The notes under the pieces are model-generated. The model saw only the letters and a list, made by a program, of their open reading frames with translations, ran no database searches and was not told the origin of the DNA. A program made the translations under genes and the position numbers. From positions 401,016,001 through 401,080,000 of the forward strand of contig OZ024740.1 of NCBI GenBank assembly GCA_964016885.1: a stretch of DNA of 64,000 bases, read 5' to 3'. Shown here piece after piece: positions 1-32,329 of this stretch (its first letter is position 1; every line of letters begins with the position of its first letter). This DNA is from Eledone cirrhosa. Taxonomy: Eukaryota.

Positions 1-726
1 AGGTTTAGATATAAGTTTGAAAGCGGAGTCAACGGAAGGGAGTTCCTGTCAACAAACTCACCATACGGTTTATATACAGAAGTCACTGATATCCAAGTAG
101 CTAAATGTCAGCAGAAGGGCAACCAGGAATCATGACCTAGACACGACCCTGCCCCCCTTACAGTGTAAGTTAAGAGACGAAACTTTCACTTGAGCGTGGC
201 TTCTTCTCTGAAGACCTACTCTCCAGCCCTTCTAAGGGTTTCGTCGCTAGTAGTAACATCCGATCAAGCAAAGACTGTACAATAAACATATTACAAGCAC
301 TGGCGTAAGGAAAGATGCATTCGTTTTACAGGACATTGCTAAATATTGACGACTTGAATCTGTAAGACTTTTAACCTAATTTTACTTCATCGTGACATAG
401 CAAGTACAAATATATTGTCTAGATTATTTCAAATCAATCAGCTTATGCTCATAGCGTAACCATTTTGTAGTTTCAGGGGACAGGGTTCTTCGCAAAAACA
501 CTATTTCATGCATTTCCCATCAATTATCTATCTGTTGGCGAATGTAGTGAATCCACGCATGCATATATTAGACACAGACCATTTGAGGGGGAAAACACGG
601 ATTATTCGTTTTTGTCTTGATCTGTCTCCGTTTCACATTTGAAAAGAGGGTAATAGCCCTAAAATATCATTTCTATCACATTGTACCGGTTTTTTGATAT
701 TATCAGTCATTTATATATATATATAA

Positions 727-908
727 TTGGCAATCGTAAGGTTGTGAGTTCGATTCCTGAACCAGGCGATGCGTTATGTCCTTGAGCAAGACACTTTATT
801 TCACATTGCTCCTTCTACCTGGAGTTGCGACCGATAAATAGTATTAGCAATTGGAAAGACCAACGGAAACATTGTTCCCTCGGTCCGATTTGACGAAAGT
901 CGATCGTT
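727..908 (+). mobile_element. tRNA-derived SINE family 2, 5'-truncated copy
   Basis: B-box GAGTTCGATTCC followed by GTCCTTGAGCAAGACACTTTATTTCAC (CORE/V-domain-like); body colinear with 11008-11222. Confidence 0.75.
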
Positions 909-1046
909 TAAAAAAAAAATATATATATATATATATAAAGAGAGAGAGAGAGAGAACACTGGAAAGGTAATATCCGTAGTGGTAGAGCACTCAGTCCATG
1001 GGACGAGTTAGGTAGAAGTAGTAACACAACAGTTAATTCACCATAC

Positions 1047-1084
1047 CGAGAATAAATTTTTCACCTTAGCGGATCCTCAGCTCG
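1047..1084 (-). ncRNA. Minimal type I hammerhead motif (family B, left arm)
   Basis: Minus strand cgag-CTGAGGA-tccgctaaggt-GAAA-aattta-TT-ctcg; stem I cgag/ctcg; stem III decayed. Confidence 0.65.
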
Positions 1085-1102
1085 CAATGGCCAGGGTTAT
1101 TT

Positions 1103-1140
1103 CGAGGTGAGGATCCGCTAAGGTGAAACAATTGTTCTCG
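1103..1140 (+). ncRNA. Minimal type I hammerhead motif (family B, right arm)
   Basis: cgag-GTGAGGA-tccgctaaggt-GAAA-caattg-TT-ctcg; palindromic stem III acaattgt; C3 mutated to G. Confidence 0.6.
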
Positions 1141-1170
1141 GTGTGGTGAACTAACTGTTGTGTCACCACT

Positions 1171-1349
<179 letters not shown>

Positions 1350-1354
1350 TGGTG

Positions 1355-1386
<32 letters not shown>

Positions 1387-1621
1387 ACACACACACAGAC
1401 ACACACACACACAAACACACAAACACATACACACACATATATATATATATATAATAATACTACTCTTTATAGTTATGTATATACTATAAACAGGAAAGGT
1501 CAGTAATTTCCTACTACCTTATCACCAGTAAGAGAAATAGTTCAATGTAAGAACATTAGTTGTTTTACAGAGCAGGAAAATAAATAAATTAGACAATTAT
1601 CAAAGTTGTGTTCAAATCATT

Positions 1622-4233: not shown

Positions 4234-4235
<2 letters not shown>

Positions 4236-7200
4236 AAGGCGGGTAAAATTCCCGAGATCCATGGACGAGTTCTCTCCAGCGGTCTCTGTCCCTCATTATC
4301 GCTGCCATGTCCTGCGTCTCCAACAGACCAGTGTCTGTCCTTAGGGCATCAACATATGTTAACCTTGGTCTTCCTCTTCCAGTGTGTCCATGTAGGGGCT
4401 CCCAAAGGAGCACGGAGTGCAATGTCAACTCTGGATGTCGGTGAGCATGTCCAGCCAACCTCAGTCTCCTCTGTGTCACTTTTGAGCTGACTTTTGGGAG
4501 GCTCCCATACAGCTCTGAGTTTTTCATCCTCAGTGTATACTGATTAATGTTCAGAGCCATCCTCAGCATTCTCGTGTAGCACCCATCCACCATCTGAGTG
4601 AGTCTCTTGGTCAGTGTCCAAGTCTCAGACCCATACAGCAGCACAGACTCCACTACAGCAATGAAGAGGCGGATTTTCAGGTCTCTACGAAGGTCCGACT
4701 TCCACACCGATCTCAAGCTGTGGCACGCTGCCCAGGCCTTGCTCTTCCTCTCAACCACATCATCTTCCGTATTCCCAATCTTTGCTCCCAAATACAGGAA
4801 GTCCTCAACCAATTCCAGCGGCTTCCCGCCTACATTAGTGATCCCCTCTGGCTTCTCAACATTCTCTACCAGATATTTTGTTTTAGTCTCATTCATTCTC
4901 AGCCCCACACTCATCGACACAGTCTCAACCTCCCGCATCAAATCCTCTGCCTCCTTCACTGTATTTGTCACCAAAACTATGTCGTCGGCAAATTCAGCAT
5001 CCGATACCTTTTTCGCCCCAACTCTCCTGCTCTGAGCCGGTGCTACAGTAAAGCCAGAGTCCTGGTGTTTCTCCAGTGCAAGGCGCATACAATAGTCCAC
5101 TACGATGATAAAAAGGTAGGGAGCCAATGTATCTCCCTGGAGCACTCCAGCCAGTATCTCAAAGAACTCTGTCATCCCATCAGGTGTAATGACTTGGGCT
5201 TTGGTGTTGGTGTAGAGCAGTGATATCAGGTCCACTATCCTCTTGGGGATTCCATAAGCCTGTAAGATCTTCATCAGGCAGTAACGGTCCACAGAATCAA
5301 AGGCCTTCCTAAAGTCAATGAAAACCATGACCGCAGGAAGGCACTTTGCTCTAGCTCCCTCTAATATCCTCCTCAGCATCAGGATGTGACTGGTGGTTGA
5401 TCTACCCTCTCTGAAGCCGTTCTGGTTGTCCCTGAGCTTCTTCTCCATCTCAGGCTGGATCCTGTTAAGAATCATCCTGTTGAGGGTCTTTGCCACAAGT
5501 GACGTCGGTGAGATCCCCCGGTAGTTGTTGGTGTTAGAGAGATCTCCCTTCTTTGGCACTGGGACGATGTTACTGATCCTCCACTGATTCGGGGCAACTC
5601 CCTTCTCCAGTGCCCCGTTACAGAACCCCAGGATGATATCATCAAAATCACACCACTTCATCACCTCTGATGCTACTCCATCTTCTCCATGAGCCTTGCC
5701 CTCCTTGATCTTCTTCTTGGCTCTCTGAAGCTCCTCTCTGGTGAAGGGCTCTGTCTCAACATCCAGTTCCTCAAACAGCCGCCTGATCTCCCCAGTGCTC
5801 TGGGCTGTGGAGGGTGGCTCTCCTAGTAGGGTCCTAAAATGGTCTAGCCATTTCCTCTTCCTATCCTCGGGCCCCGTTCCCTGGATCTGACTCGAACACC
5901 TTTTCTTCCTCCCTGTGATCTCGTTGATGATCATCCAGCTCTCCTTACATCCAGATCTGTCAACCGCTCTCTCCACACTTCTGATCTTCTCTATCAGTGC
6001 CTCCTCTCTGACCTCAGTGTAAGCGGTACAGAGCTCTTCCCTCATCACCTCCACAGTCTCCATCCTCTCCTCCGTAGGATCAGCATAGAATTGGTCCCTG
6101 GCAGCTTTCAGGTGTTCTCTGGCTGCACACACTTTTGGGTCTGCAGAGCTGACGTGCTTCCCTTTGTTCTTTTTCCTCGGCACCAGGGTTTCACTTGCTT
6201 TCGCCACTGCATTGGTGAAGTGCCCGTACCTCCTCGTCACACTCTCCTCAGTCCATCCAATCTCTCTCTCCTCTGACTCTCCACACAGAGCACTAAACCT
6301 GTTTCTCACTTCCACTGTGAACCTCTCCTGTAGCTTATCATCTTCCTTGAAAGCTCCCCAGTCATAGATTGTTCTCCGGGGCTGAGCCTTGCTCTTTCTT
6401 AAGCTCACGCGGACCTCACTCATAACAAGCCGGTGGTCACTACCCAGTGTACTGAAATAGCTGTATGGTTCCGTGTTCAGAACACTATTCCGCCACTTTT
6501 TCCTCACCAGAATGAAATCAATCTGGGACTTGGACAGGTGCACATCTGAGATGTAGGTCCACATCTTCCCCAGATTCTTCCTAAACCTTAGGTTGGTCGC
6601 CATCAAGTTCGCCTCCAGCAGGGTGTCTCTCAGTAGTCTTCCATTTCGGTTGGTGTTGTTATGGAAGTACCAGCAAGGATCTTCACTGCCCTCCTTACTC
6701 AGATGTGCATTGAAGTCCCCCAAAACAAGCAGGATATTGTGTGCCTGAGTGGTGTTGACAGCTCTACACACTTCCTCATGGAACTCCTCGGCATTCACAT
6801 CACTGTCCCCCTCGGTTGGACTATAGGCTGAGATGACTGTCAGTCTTGGGTTTCCATTGAAGGTCACCCTCAACACTCGCGGGGAGATAGGCATTATTTC
6901 CCTCACCAACAGATTGGTTTTTGCACTGAACACAAAACCCACTCCTCCTACTGCAGCATTTGTTGTGTTCTTCACTGCCGATGTAGTGATGAGCTGGCTC
7001 TTCCTCCCGATCATCACACTCCTCACGGGCTCATCGTGTAGAATCCTGTGTTCTTGGATCGCAAGTATCTGTATACCACTCTCCTCGAACAGATGTCCCA
7101 ACTCCTCTCTCTTCTCCAGCGTTCGAATAGTCCTCACATTCAAAGTGCCCATTTTGATGGCTCTTCTGCAGGACAAAACTACATTCTTTATATTTGTCTC

Positions 7201-7368
7201 AGAGACAGCTGATCCATCATCCACTGGCCCTCTCTGTGGCTCTAAGCCAGCAGAGTCATAACGACCAGGCTGCTCCTTGACAGTGTAATTAGGGGCTCTA
7301 ACCCTAGTGCTGTTAGATCGACTCTCCATATTTCTTTTCAATGGCTGACAATACCTTACCGGCGCCAC
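4234..7368 (-). CDS. RTE-clade LINE ORF: APE endonuclease plus reverse transcriptase, uninterrupted 1044 codons
   Basis: APE motifs GTLNVRT, IQEHR, SAYSP, LGDFNAH, QIDFIL, SDH; RT motifs YRGIS, QNGFR, FIDFRKAFDSV, GVLQGDTLAPYLF, FADD; RTE-like C-terminus GRGRPRLTY. First in-frame ATG near 7329. Confidence 0.95.
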
Positions 7369-7542
7369 TCGAATAAGGTAGTTATTTAACCCATAAATGG
7401 AGCCCTAACAGGTACTACCACCCCGGGCCAGGGCAGACCTGGGAGTCATGACAACTAAGGGGTAACTCCATATTCCCCACATCTCCTGAACTCCCGAACT
7501 GGAGCCTTGCCACTGGATGTAGTTTAATGTCATACCCAAGAC

Positions 7543-19420: not shown

Positions 19421-19890
19421 ATAATGAAATGACAGGGGGCTCTATTTGTGTAAATCCTTGAAAGGTTTATTATACCATGATCATTTCGATGACCGAGTTC
19501 CGTATGAATCCGGTGGTATCATCAGGTATTCGAAATATAGTAAGTGAATGTAATAGATAAAATCCATGGGGCTGAAAATCAAAGACCCGAGGGCGACCGC
19601 CATCTAGCATCTTCTACCCCTGCCGGTCGCCCTCGAGTGACGTGGCTAAAGCTTACAGTGTGCTACTACCGGTCAAATAAAGGAAAATAGAAAGGGATAG
19701 GAACATAAGTTAGCGTTAATATCATGCCACAAGAAAAAATAAAGAAAGAAGAGAGAAGAAGGGGGATCTTCCTTCCCCCTTCTTCTCTCTTCTTTCTTTT
19801 TTTCTTTCTTTTTTCTTGTGGCATGATATTAACGCTAACTTATGTTCCTATCCCTTTCTATTTTCCTTTATTTGACCGGTAGTAGCACAC
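19421..19890. mobile_element. Fold-back element family G
   Basis: Inverted arms ~19658-19766 and ~19773-19890; HHR at 19472-19529; GC hairpin at ~19588-19636. Confidence 0.65.
19472..19529 (-). ncRNA. Type I hammerhead motif with long stem II (family G)
   Basis: atac-CTGATGA-taccaccggattcatacggaactcggtcatc-GAAA-tgatca-TG-gtat; palindromic stem III atgatcat; position 17 is G, so this copy is probably inactive. Confidence 0.6.
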
Positions 19891-20262
19891 GTAGTAGCTG
19901 CGGCGCTGCAAATGGGTTACATATGAAAAAGTTTGTCCTCATCAGTGGCCTTCCAACCGTCGTAGGCATTTCGTCGCATTAAAGGCCATATACCTCAGGT
20001 TGGTGCGAGCAACGGCTAAAAAAAGTCGTTGGGACACGTAAATAAGGGGGACGCTAGAGTAAACAAACAAAATGGTTTAAGCAACAGAAAGTGATGAAGA
20101 AGAAACAAGTCCCAGATTTCTATGAATATAAATTCGGTGGAATCGTGAACGAGAGAATAAAGACCATCAAACCTGGTTGAAATGTGAGTAAGGAAGGAAT
20201 TTCGCACAGGTCTAACGGGAGGAAGAAGGGGTCTGGTCTGCGAATTCGGTAAACATAAATCT
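19891..20262 (-). mobile_element. Structured non-coding element family F, copy 1
   Basis: Patchy end-to-end similarity to 25545-26130 with covarying stems; carries the rearranged HHR. Confidence 0.7.
19935..20006 (-). ncRNA. Candidate non-circularly permuted hammerhead (F1)
   Basis: ccaacc-tg-aggtaT-A-tggcctt-taatgcgac-GAAA-tgcct-acgac-ggttgg-aaggcca-CTGATGA-g. Confidence 0.65.
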
Positions 20263-25449: not shown

Positions 25450-25544
25450 CATATATATATGTGTGTATAAAGTAAACAGAAATAACAACACAATCGGTAC
25501 AGTATATGGAAGGAATATATTAGATTAATATATATATATATATA

Positions 25545-26130
25545 TGAAAAAATGGGGAGAAGAATACTGCAGGTTGCACATGGATAACATGTTATAAAAT
25601 GAGTCCCTCATCAGTGATTTGCCAACGATCATAGATATTTCATTGCATTAAAAATCATATACCTCACGTTGGTGCAATAATAACTAAATTAAGTTATTAG
25701 GACAATTAAAACGCGTAAAGCGAGTGAGACAAGTAAACAACAAAGAGGAAAGCTAACCGTAGATAGGAAGGGAACAAGCTACATAGTTATTCTGTTAGCA
25801 TAAGCTGGGTGAATATATGAGCGCTTAGAAAAAAGACCTTTCGAGATGAATCCAAATGTAAGAAAGAAGGAAAATGTATTCGTCGCGAACGGGGTGAAGT
25901 GAGAAGGGGAGAAACAGTGAGTGAGTGAGTGGAAGTGTGAGGAAGAGTTAACTGACATGACAGAGGGGGCGAAAGAAAGTAGGAGAAACAGAGAGAACGA
26001 GGGAGCAGTAAGAGAGAGAGAGAGAAAAACAGAATCGCAGTTTAGGTAAATATATGTGAAAAAATGGGGAGAAGAATACTGCAGGTTGCACATGGATAAC
26101 ATGTTATAAAATGAGTCCCTCATCAGTGAT
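25545..26130 (-). mobile_element. Structured non-coding element family F, copy 2 (partial tandem, 512-nt unit)
   Basis: Identical 74-nt direct repeats 25545-25618 and 26057-26130; (TA)n on both sides; no credible ORF. Confidence 0.75.
25604..25675 (-). ncRNA. Candidate non-circularly permuted hammerhead (F2)
   Basis: ccaacg-tg-aggtaT-A-tgatttt-taatgcaat-GAAA-tatct-atgat-cgttgg-caaatca-CTGATGA-g. Confidence 0.65.
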
Positions 26131-26754
26131 ATATATATATATATATATATACACATACATATATATGTGTGTATATATATATATATATACACACATATTT
26201 GTGTGTGTACGTGTATGCCGGTGGGGTAGCGGTATACATATTACTTTTATTATAGTTGTTTAAATGCTACCTATTACTTAGTGAGATTCTAAGAATAATT
26301 CCCTACTGTGGCAGATGCAAAACAACTGTTTAATTAAACAACAGACATCCAATCATGTTACAGCCGTGTTGAGGATGTAGTAAATAATGTTTATCGCTTT
26401 TTCTTTTACCTGGCTTTCGTAATTTTACCAAAGAAATTTCAATTATTTTCCAATGTAAAACCAAGGAGAAAATAACACGAAAAGCTTATATATATTTAAA
26501 TTTAACGAAAAGGAAAACAAAACATAAGATAATAAAAAAAAACAACAGCATGTGCATCTTTTCTTTAAAATACCTATCACTGAGGGGCCAAATAACGTGT
26601 ATTTATATCGTTAAACTGTTTGAAATATGAATACTAAAAGCTTTTTCCTGGCTCAAATTCCCATGATGAGAGGTTTAAAAGAAAACAAATATAATGGAGC
26701 TATAACAAAAATATTTAAAAAATATCAAAAATAAAATGAATGATTATTTTTCCA

Positions 26755-32263: not shown

Positions 32264-32329
32264 TATTTTATCTGATGAAAGCGCACCATAATTTGCCTTG
32301 GTGGCCCTTGAAATATGTATAATAAAATA
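32264..32329 (+). ncRNA. Canonical type I hammerhead (family H inverted pLTR)
   Basis: tattttat-CTGATGA-aagcgcacca..tggtggccctt-GAAA-tatgta-TA-ataaaata; 8-bp stem I. Confidence 0.85.

Follow-up and report, generated by a model that had tools for sequence, protein, structure and literature searches.

Type-SGC hammerhead ribozymes are described by Eckert et al. (2023), in the accessible text of PMC10085705, from metatranscriptomes only, with none in the genomes of known organisms, and they are reported to cleave in vitro. Metazoan non-LTR retrozymes, according to the available parts of two sources (PMC7229834; 10.64898/2026.07.22.740005), are ORF-less and highly self-paired units of 150-450 nt with one type I (C-G-S) hammerhead each, which occur as tandem and solo copies in thousands per genome, give demonstrated circles, and are proposed to originate from pLTRs and to be mobilised by PLEs. 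Naiads are autonomous PLEs with an N-terminal GIY-YIG domain and a reverse transcriptase (RT), for which the available portions of Craig et al. (2021; PMC8557442) describe (TA)n targets, no canonical hammerhead, and eight 'HHR_half_core' motifs with GAAA far off on either side. Finally, the Poseidon PLE of the anole (Frangieh et al. 2024; accessible parts of PMC11167929), likewise autonomous, carries a canonical, protein-assisted hammerhead, has AT-rich targets, and was seen in vitro to possess two internal RT start sites with a tail of 30-40 nt lying between them. In the literature at our disposal, which included few subscription papers and the 2026 preprint without its supplements, we found no paper that connects permuted hammerheads with Naiads, with retrozymes or with the genomes of animals.

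In the present study, we analysed a window of 64,000 nt, the whole stretch of DNA considered here, from the Eledone cirrhosa genome (3.0 Gb; contig OZ024740.1, positions 401,016,001 to 401,080,000), which contains two copies of a hammerhead-bearing repeat that we call family F. Family F is a young, non-autonomous retrozyme family of the PLE type. With the metazoan retrozymes it shares ORF-less units of a few hundred nucleotides, one hammerhead per unit, tandem and solo copies, thousands of copies in the genome, and a proposed mobilisation by PLEs with an origin from pLTRs; it differs from them in its weakly folded units of 492-623 nt and in the S-G-C order of its hammerhead, which no rotation of a circle turns into C-G-S. 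With Naiads it has in common the (TA)n targets, partial tandems, inverted 5' copies, a one-sided tail and the ribozyme layout in the 3' region (PMC8557442, as far as accessible), the difference being that family F has neither an ORF nor alignable Naiad sequence.

Copies in the window and units of the family

Both copies lie on the minus strand, as do all of their features given here, and the motifs listed by the first-pass annotation are consequently antisense. Positions 25545-25618 recur exactly at 26057-26130 (74 nt, offset 512) with (TA)n on either side, just as had been described from the start for a 512-nt unit with a 74-nt overlap. This copy 2 comprises a full 512-nt unit of subfamily A (25546..26057), made up of a body of 68% pyrimidine, a hairpin, the ribozyme and a 3' end with tail, and an upstream, 5'-truncated partial unit (26058..26130), which has the same sequence as the 73-74 nt at the 3' end of the full unit, begins 4 nt upstream of CUGAUGA and is without the S and G blocks. 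The ribozyme, preceded by an 8-bp hairpin (25678..25699), opens with a bridge strand (25667..25677), followed by block S (25652..25664; stem III strand, AUA triplet, stem I strand), block G (25633..25647; stem II strand, GAAA at 25641-25638, stem III strand), and the bridge partner together with block C (25607..25627; stem I strand, CUGAUGA at 25614-25608, and one nucleotide able to pair with position 11.1); by analogy with hammerheads, the cut would fall between 25658 and 25657. An optional 3' tail of about 48 nt (25546..25593) lies between two preferred insertion ends, and (TA)n flanks the element at its 3' end (25527..25545) and on the 5' side (26129-26189).

Copy 1 (19896..20258), previously taken for a unit of about 400 nt, is really a 363-nt, 5'-truncated piece, 98.9% identical, of a 621-nt subfamily B unit, with the ribozyme at 19937-20010, CUGAUGA at 19945-19939 and the predicted cut after 19989. 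The three CUGAUGA cores on the minus strand thus begin at 25614, 26126 and 19945. The final 11 nt of the copy 1 unit are swapped for a palindromic repeat. A near-perfect palindrome (19652-19895, 93-nt arms, 98% complementary) adjoins the 3' end of copy 1; pieces related to it occur in loci L044 and L108, and foldback repeats of this kind are found in (TA)n by many family F loci (e.g. L003, L015).

Over ribozyme and hairpin the two copies align locally with a score of 92 (z 28, 0 of 500 shuffles), and outside these parts the local similarity is also significant (score 65, z 5.8, 0 of 500 shuffles), with the islands picked out by the first-pass annotation in the same order; global alignment outside the ribozyme is weaker (z 2.5, 8 of 500 shuffles). 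The covariation proposed for the hairpin is borne out between subfamilies, since 94% of cells are paired and both partners change in 3 of 8 pairs, with slid controls at 11-53%. The nine subfamily units compared can be aligned over their full length; mean pairwise identity is 0.81 for the ribozyme and 0.78 for the hairpin, and falls to 0.53-0.58 in the other parts. A structured RNA under selection for structure, as had been suggested for the whole unit, can be upheld for the roughly 100 nt of hairpin and ribozyme, but the rest of the unit folds no better than shuffles (two body segments, z +0.87 each, no folding signal). When folded as circles, the units are 41-48% paired (z -0.9 for the 512-nt and -2.6 for the 621-nt unit), short of the highly self-paired state of known retrozymes. 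As to coding content, no ATG frame of at least 50 aa is shared across the nine subfamily units, three of which are without any such frame, and an ORF with N-terminal GIY-YIG and RT is absent from the units and from the sense-strand upstream sequence examined. A 121-aa frame of the 512-nt unit was considered as a gene and rejected, being low-complexity and not kept across subfamilies.

At the genome level, a first look returned 2,678 candidates for one copy and 3,005 for the other, identity being 97-100% in the best 40 scored matches of each, and the exact ribozyme pattern gave 4,567 matches (control 0), a lower bound, since six loci with family F pieces were found in 556 kb taken for other reasons. 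The repeat was also present in two contig runs, where presence alone was recorded. Sixty loci were selected from the first 100 pattern matches listed, rare variants being deliberately included; they contain 86 ribozymes, and their tandem spacings (18 at 492-623 nt, one at 999 nt) replace the earlier unit size of about 400-510 nt. Within (TA)n the family is arranged as fragments, partial tandems, inverted pairs and arrays, one of which (locus L118) has at least 8 units. A genome search for copy number and unit length, as the first-pass annotation had proposed, was informative on both, and the view in that annotation of an ORF-less, high-copy, retrozyme-like family mobilised in the manner of PLEs accords with these thousands of young, ORF-less copies in (TA)n.

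Wiring of the hammerhead core

Across 43 aligned cores, the bridge strand comes first and is followed by one strand of stem III, AUA, one strand of stem I and a short linker. A stem II strand and GAAA come next, and then the other stem III strand, the bridge partner, the other stem I strand and CUGAUGA. A five-helix model pairs 94.4% of the cells, with 11 of 24 pairs compensatory and slid controls at 31-44%; the core letters were imposed by the search pattern, and the covarying positions were free. Five nucleotides of the bridge strand pair with the strand 5' of GAAA, where they continue stem II, and the next six with the strand that precedes stem I on its 5' side (93% and 97% paired for helices 1 and 2, respectively). 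Stem II of family F obtains one pair from the strand after CUGAUGA and the rest from the upstream bridge strand; position 11.1 pairs downstream in 37 of the 43 sequences, and, as a point against the proposed ribozyme, the 10.1-11.1 pair is broken in 6 of the 43. Ordinary folding of the pseudoknotted core yielded z of -0.55 and -0.65 with a method that cannot represent a pseudoknot, and an Rfam scan of the window gave microsatellite-driven microRNA matches and no hammerhead among the 150 of 244 matches listed. By analogy with known hammerheads, the family F core is predicted to self-cleave.

Compared with the type-SGC ribozymes (HRIMA-1 and a variant, in the accessible text of PMC10085705), family F has the same S-G-C order, a linker of 2-5 nt from stem I to the stem II strand, stems I and III, an intact core of CUGAnGA, GAAA and U-H triplet, and a helix tying stems I and II. 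In type SGC, however, the strand that directly follows CUGAnGA forms stem II, and the joining helix is on the 3' side, whereas in family F a single stem II pair comes directly after CUGAnGA and the bridge strand lies upstream. Such an upstream supply of stem II, amounting to all but one pair in family F and to the whole stem in nine of nine Naiad cores, breaks block C of type SGC, and the wiring of family F, as read from its sequence, appears to be undescribed so far.

The E. cirrhosa genome contains, in addition, two older S-G-C families with GUA triplets (e.g. L149-L168, L138-L148), for which 81 pattern matches stand against 9 in the control and 18 members align at 80% column identity. A lone intact-looking S-G-C core was noticed on contig C591 (L137), and ten near-identical S-G-C copies are clustered on C27 at 2.74-2.84 Mb.

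Naiad 3' ends and the PLEs of the genome

What the first-pass annotation had missed is that the ribozyme layout of family F occurs in Naiad PLE 3' ends. From 113 Naiad-related metagenome loci, 80 were taken, and the 55 with at least 150 nt beyond the match were searched with a descriptor open to all six block orders, on both strands and in five shuffles of each (275). The S-G-C core was found in 7 of the 55 Naiad 3' regions, with none in antisense, none in 275 shuffles and none in any other order, the canonical one included; the remaining 48 gave no hammerhead core by descriptor, so the fold is not universal in Naiads. Three of the regions without a core (L296, L304 and L306) have another conserved motif in common, for which Rfam gave no match at gathering score. 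Two further S-G-C cores were added by eye, bringing those examined to nine, some of them closely related (L282 and L283; L336 and L347), and six of the S-G-C loci hold frames of 690-946 aa with Naiad motifs. A gathering-score Rfam scan of 15 Naiad loci returned no match.

In all nine Naiad cores, position 11.1 starts a Watson-Crick helix of 6-7 bp with an upstream strand (shuffle p 0.0015-0.049 each), after which comes a second bridge helix of 4-11 bp; after CUGAnGA there are 0-1 stem II pairs in eight cores and 3 in one, as against 6-7 upstream in every core. These upstream helices from 11.1 indicate a Naiad core opened between A9 and stem II, and a natural hammerhead is reported to tolerate an extra nucleotide between A9 and G10.1 (PMC3705267, in the part available). 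Inspection by eye of 60 of the 62 CTGATGA places in the supplement of PMC8557442 assigned S-G-C order to seven Naiad ends, including both octopus consensus sequences, whose ends match family F in block order and resemble it in the upstream hairpin and, roughly, in the distance to (TA)n. The ends of two nematode Naiad consensus sequences (places 34 and 35) were seen by eye to have full stems in C-S-G order, previously known from two metagenomic sequences only.

Turning to E. cirrhosa itself, three protein queries, one of them with a stricter first look, detected Naiad RT as decayed remnants, short or stop-ridden, and no intact Naiad, in agreement with Craig et al. on cephalopods (PMC8557442, accessible portions). 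Neither the octopus-Naiad ribozyme motif, searched for as an exact match, nor either of two patterns of Naiad RT motifs had a match in the genome, and the 3' ends of the remnants (8 loci by descriptor, 55 overlapping loci by profile) carried ordinary family F insertions and no S-G-C core. Architecture is shared with Naiads, and no sequence-level link to the E. cirrhosa remnants was found; on architecture, not sequence, family F likely descends from a Naiad 3' end.

Two young PLE families that target (TA)n are candidate helpers. The first, of the L196 type, has RT with a C-terminal GIY-YIG domain in an 801-aa frame; its copies end in (TA)n, are 94-98% identical in 17 of 18 compared, and bear a tail of 40-43 nt on 6 arms and none on 10. 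The second, assigned to the Hydra clade from motifs, is 98-100% identical, with frames up to 741 aa, a tail of about 115 nt and (TA)n ends. BLAST of family F units against the loci of both candidates found family F insertions only and no similarity to either. The search for an RT-bearing parent, raised by the first-pass annotation, thus found no intact Naiad with the three queries, and the two young PLE families share no sequence with family F. Given only decayed Naiads beside these two families, it is likely that family F persisted after its parent was lost and that it is copied in trans. On architecture, not sequence, the likeliest helper is the C-terminal-endonuclease PLE of the L196 type, with the young Hydra-clade family as the alternative; tail length favours the former, while age and a fusion in locus L059 favour the latter. 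In that locus (600-1428, plus strand), a fragment of a young Hydra-clade RT is joined to the 5' end of a subfamily B copy, both having the same orientation and no (TA)n separating them, and a template switch is possible.

Could the copies be terminal-repeat fragments of a still active ORF-bearing PLE, the case that the first-pass annotation had named as damaging to its reading? Their target, tail and inverted-pair anatomy is that of autonomous PLEs, but copies longer than one unit run into the next unit with no ORF between, no sense Naiad ORF stands beside a copy in the searched loci, and no notable Naiad protein match was found in the loci. The young autonomous PLEs of this genome, moreover, have 3' ends unrelated to family F. 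Even considering that 120 family loci were inspected among thousands and that the genome searches score the best candidates only, we deem this explanation very improbable.

Several other repeats were encountered. The window contains two decayed Hydra-clade-like PLE copies on the minus strand (29900-27640 and 24000-20480), the latter with a degenerate hammerhead-like motif in canonical order near 20690-20620 and ending in the (TA)n of copy 1. A 1,056-aa open frame with LINE endonuclease and RT domains (Pfam Exo_endo_phos_2 and RVT_1) lies at 4234-7404 on the minus strand. A repeated motif of CUGAUGA followed by a hairpin, at 32272 (plus), 30798 (minus) and 60623 (plus) and common in other loci, is probably another hammerhead-bearing repeat family. 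Lastly, the minus strand of L196 (5362-6300) carries a tandem of units of about 469 nt in which CUGAUGA precedes GAAA, the canonical order; these units likely represent an ordinary retrozyme family of E. cirrhosa.

Insertion ends and the copied RNA

In the best 30 subfamily A loci, a set selected for full length, all 3' ends lie within 2 nt of one point and are followed by (AT)n-type repeats, while the 5' ends are scattered and the insertions comprise 1.0-2.5 units. The 60 pattern-selected loci have 67 terminal ribozymes and 62 located ends; counted from the predicted cut, 46 of these ends fall at 102-121 nt, 9 at 64-69 nt, 5 at 84-86 nt and 2 elsewhere. The preferred ends are thus 64 nt and about 110-112 nt past the predicted cut, some 40-50 nt apart, and in seven of seven inverted pairs one arm has the tail and the other has none. 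Repeat boundaries and the AUA site do not coincide: the insertions begin at two internal sites and not at the cleavage junction, a feature overlooked at first. Family F displays the PLE hallmarks of 5' truncation, partial tandems, an inverted 5' copy, a one-sided tail of 30-50 nt and a (TA)n target, the same end anatomy being described for PLEs by Craig et al. (2021; PMC8557442, in part), and it resembles the Poseidon PLE in its AT-rich targets and in the two internal RT start sites around an optional tail (PMC11167929, accessible parts). This tail anatomy and the two start sites suggest that the ends of family F are set by the enzyme and not by the ribozyme, and ends at 64 and about 110 nt past the cut suggest a template that runs on across the cut site.

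On balance we judge it fairly probable that family F is a non-autonomous retrozyme-type PLE, likely derived from a Naiad 3' end, with predicted S-G-C self-cleavage, and likely copied in trans by the RT of a living PLE. Tandem copies would be transcribed, and the ribozyme would cut after AUA to release unit-length RNAs, which, by analogy with animal retrozymes, would likely be ligated into circles. A PLE endonuclease would then nick the (TA)n target, and the RT would start internally, at a site either 64 or about 110 nt downstream of the cut, and read back across the (re-joined) cut site through up to several units, leaving 1.x-unit tandems such as 512 + 74.

Whether a circle is needed is a separate matter. 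Units within one insertion differ by 1.9% (340/17,909) and 2.1% (300/14,004), subfamily B divergence between loci being 2.6%, and several variants in L118 are common to just 2-3 of 7 units; such within-insertion differences and variants are more in keeping with multimeric donors, or with local duplication at a later time, than with a single monomer circle. They would also suit an account with the same element and helper in which insertions arise from uncut multi-unit read-through transcripts and the ribozyme trims or cuts late. Arrays of up to at least 8 units are available as donors, nearly all copies are intact across the predicted cut, and the unit is not highly self-paired, unlike the retrozyme circles described in the accessible text of PMC7229834; in vitro, according to the part of PMC11167929 available, unprocessed RNA is the main PLE substrate and the PLE hammerhead is dispensable for insertion. 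Nevertheless, most within-locus differences are explained by post-insertion mutation, and the covariation speaks for long selection on the hammerhead fold. Since all animal retrozymes tested gave circles (PMC7229834, in part) and the fold is under selection, the circle is retained as the likelier route, and the circle-free account seems to us unlikely.

A further question is whether the fold still cuts at all, or, cleavage having been lost, is maintained as a signal at which the PLE RT binds or pauses. This would agree with the presence of at most one stem II pair on the catalytic-strand side, and with 5' truncations that do not peak at the cut (4 of 22 sites there versus 15 at TA-like spots 7-10 nt on, by a hand tally of the first 100 rows); in six of 30 subfamily A insertions, moreover, the 5' end falls at unit positions 439-447, where the fold has its 3' edge. 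Yet Naiad cores with a column identity of just 50% retain CUGAnGA, GAAA and the U-H triplet, and the cleavage of type-SGC ribozymes in vitro, like the tolerance of an extra nucleotide at A9/G10.1 in a natural hammerhead, tells against a lost activity. We hold this alternative to be quite improbable.

Beyond the preferred reading of a trans-copied, non-autonomous PLE, we tentatively put forward a bolder one, to which we give somewhat less than even weight. It holds that a hammerhead core can open between A9 and stem II and be rebuilt by an upstream bridge, a wiring that would lie outside the six block orders proposed in 2023, that such cores are active in many Naiads, and that family F is a circular-RNA parasite that switched to the RT of another PLE clade after the death of its parent clade. 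If true, non-circularly permuted hammerheads, so far a feature of environmental RNA whose origin is unknown, would be placed in animal genomes, in thousands of copies; it would be explained why descriptor searches saw no hammerhead in Naiads, and the same searches would be missing a whole class of retrozymes. The bridge-strand wiring would constitute a new and short ribozyme design that is directly testable. Furthermore, a young parasite without a living parent makes the long-proposed, unproven enzyme link between retrozymes and PLEs testable, and with it the copying of one PLE clade's RNA by another.
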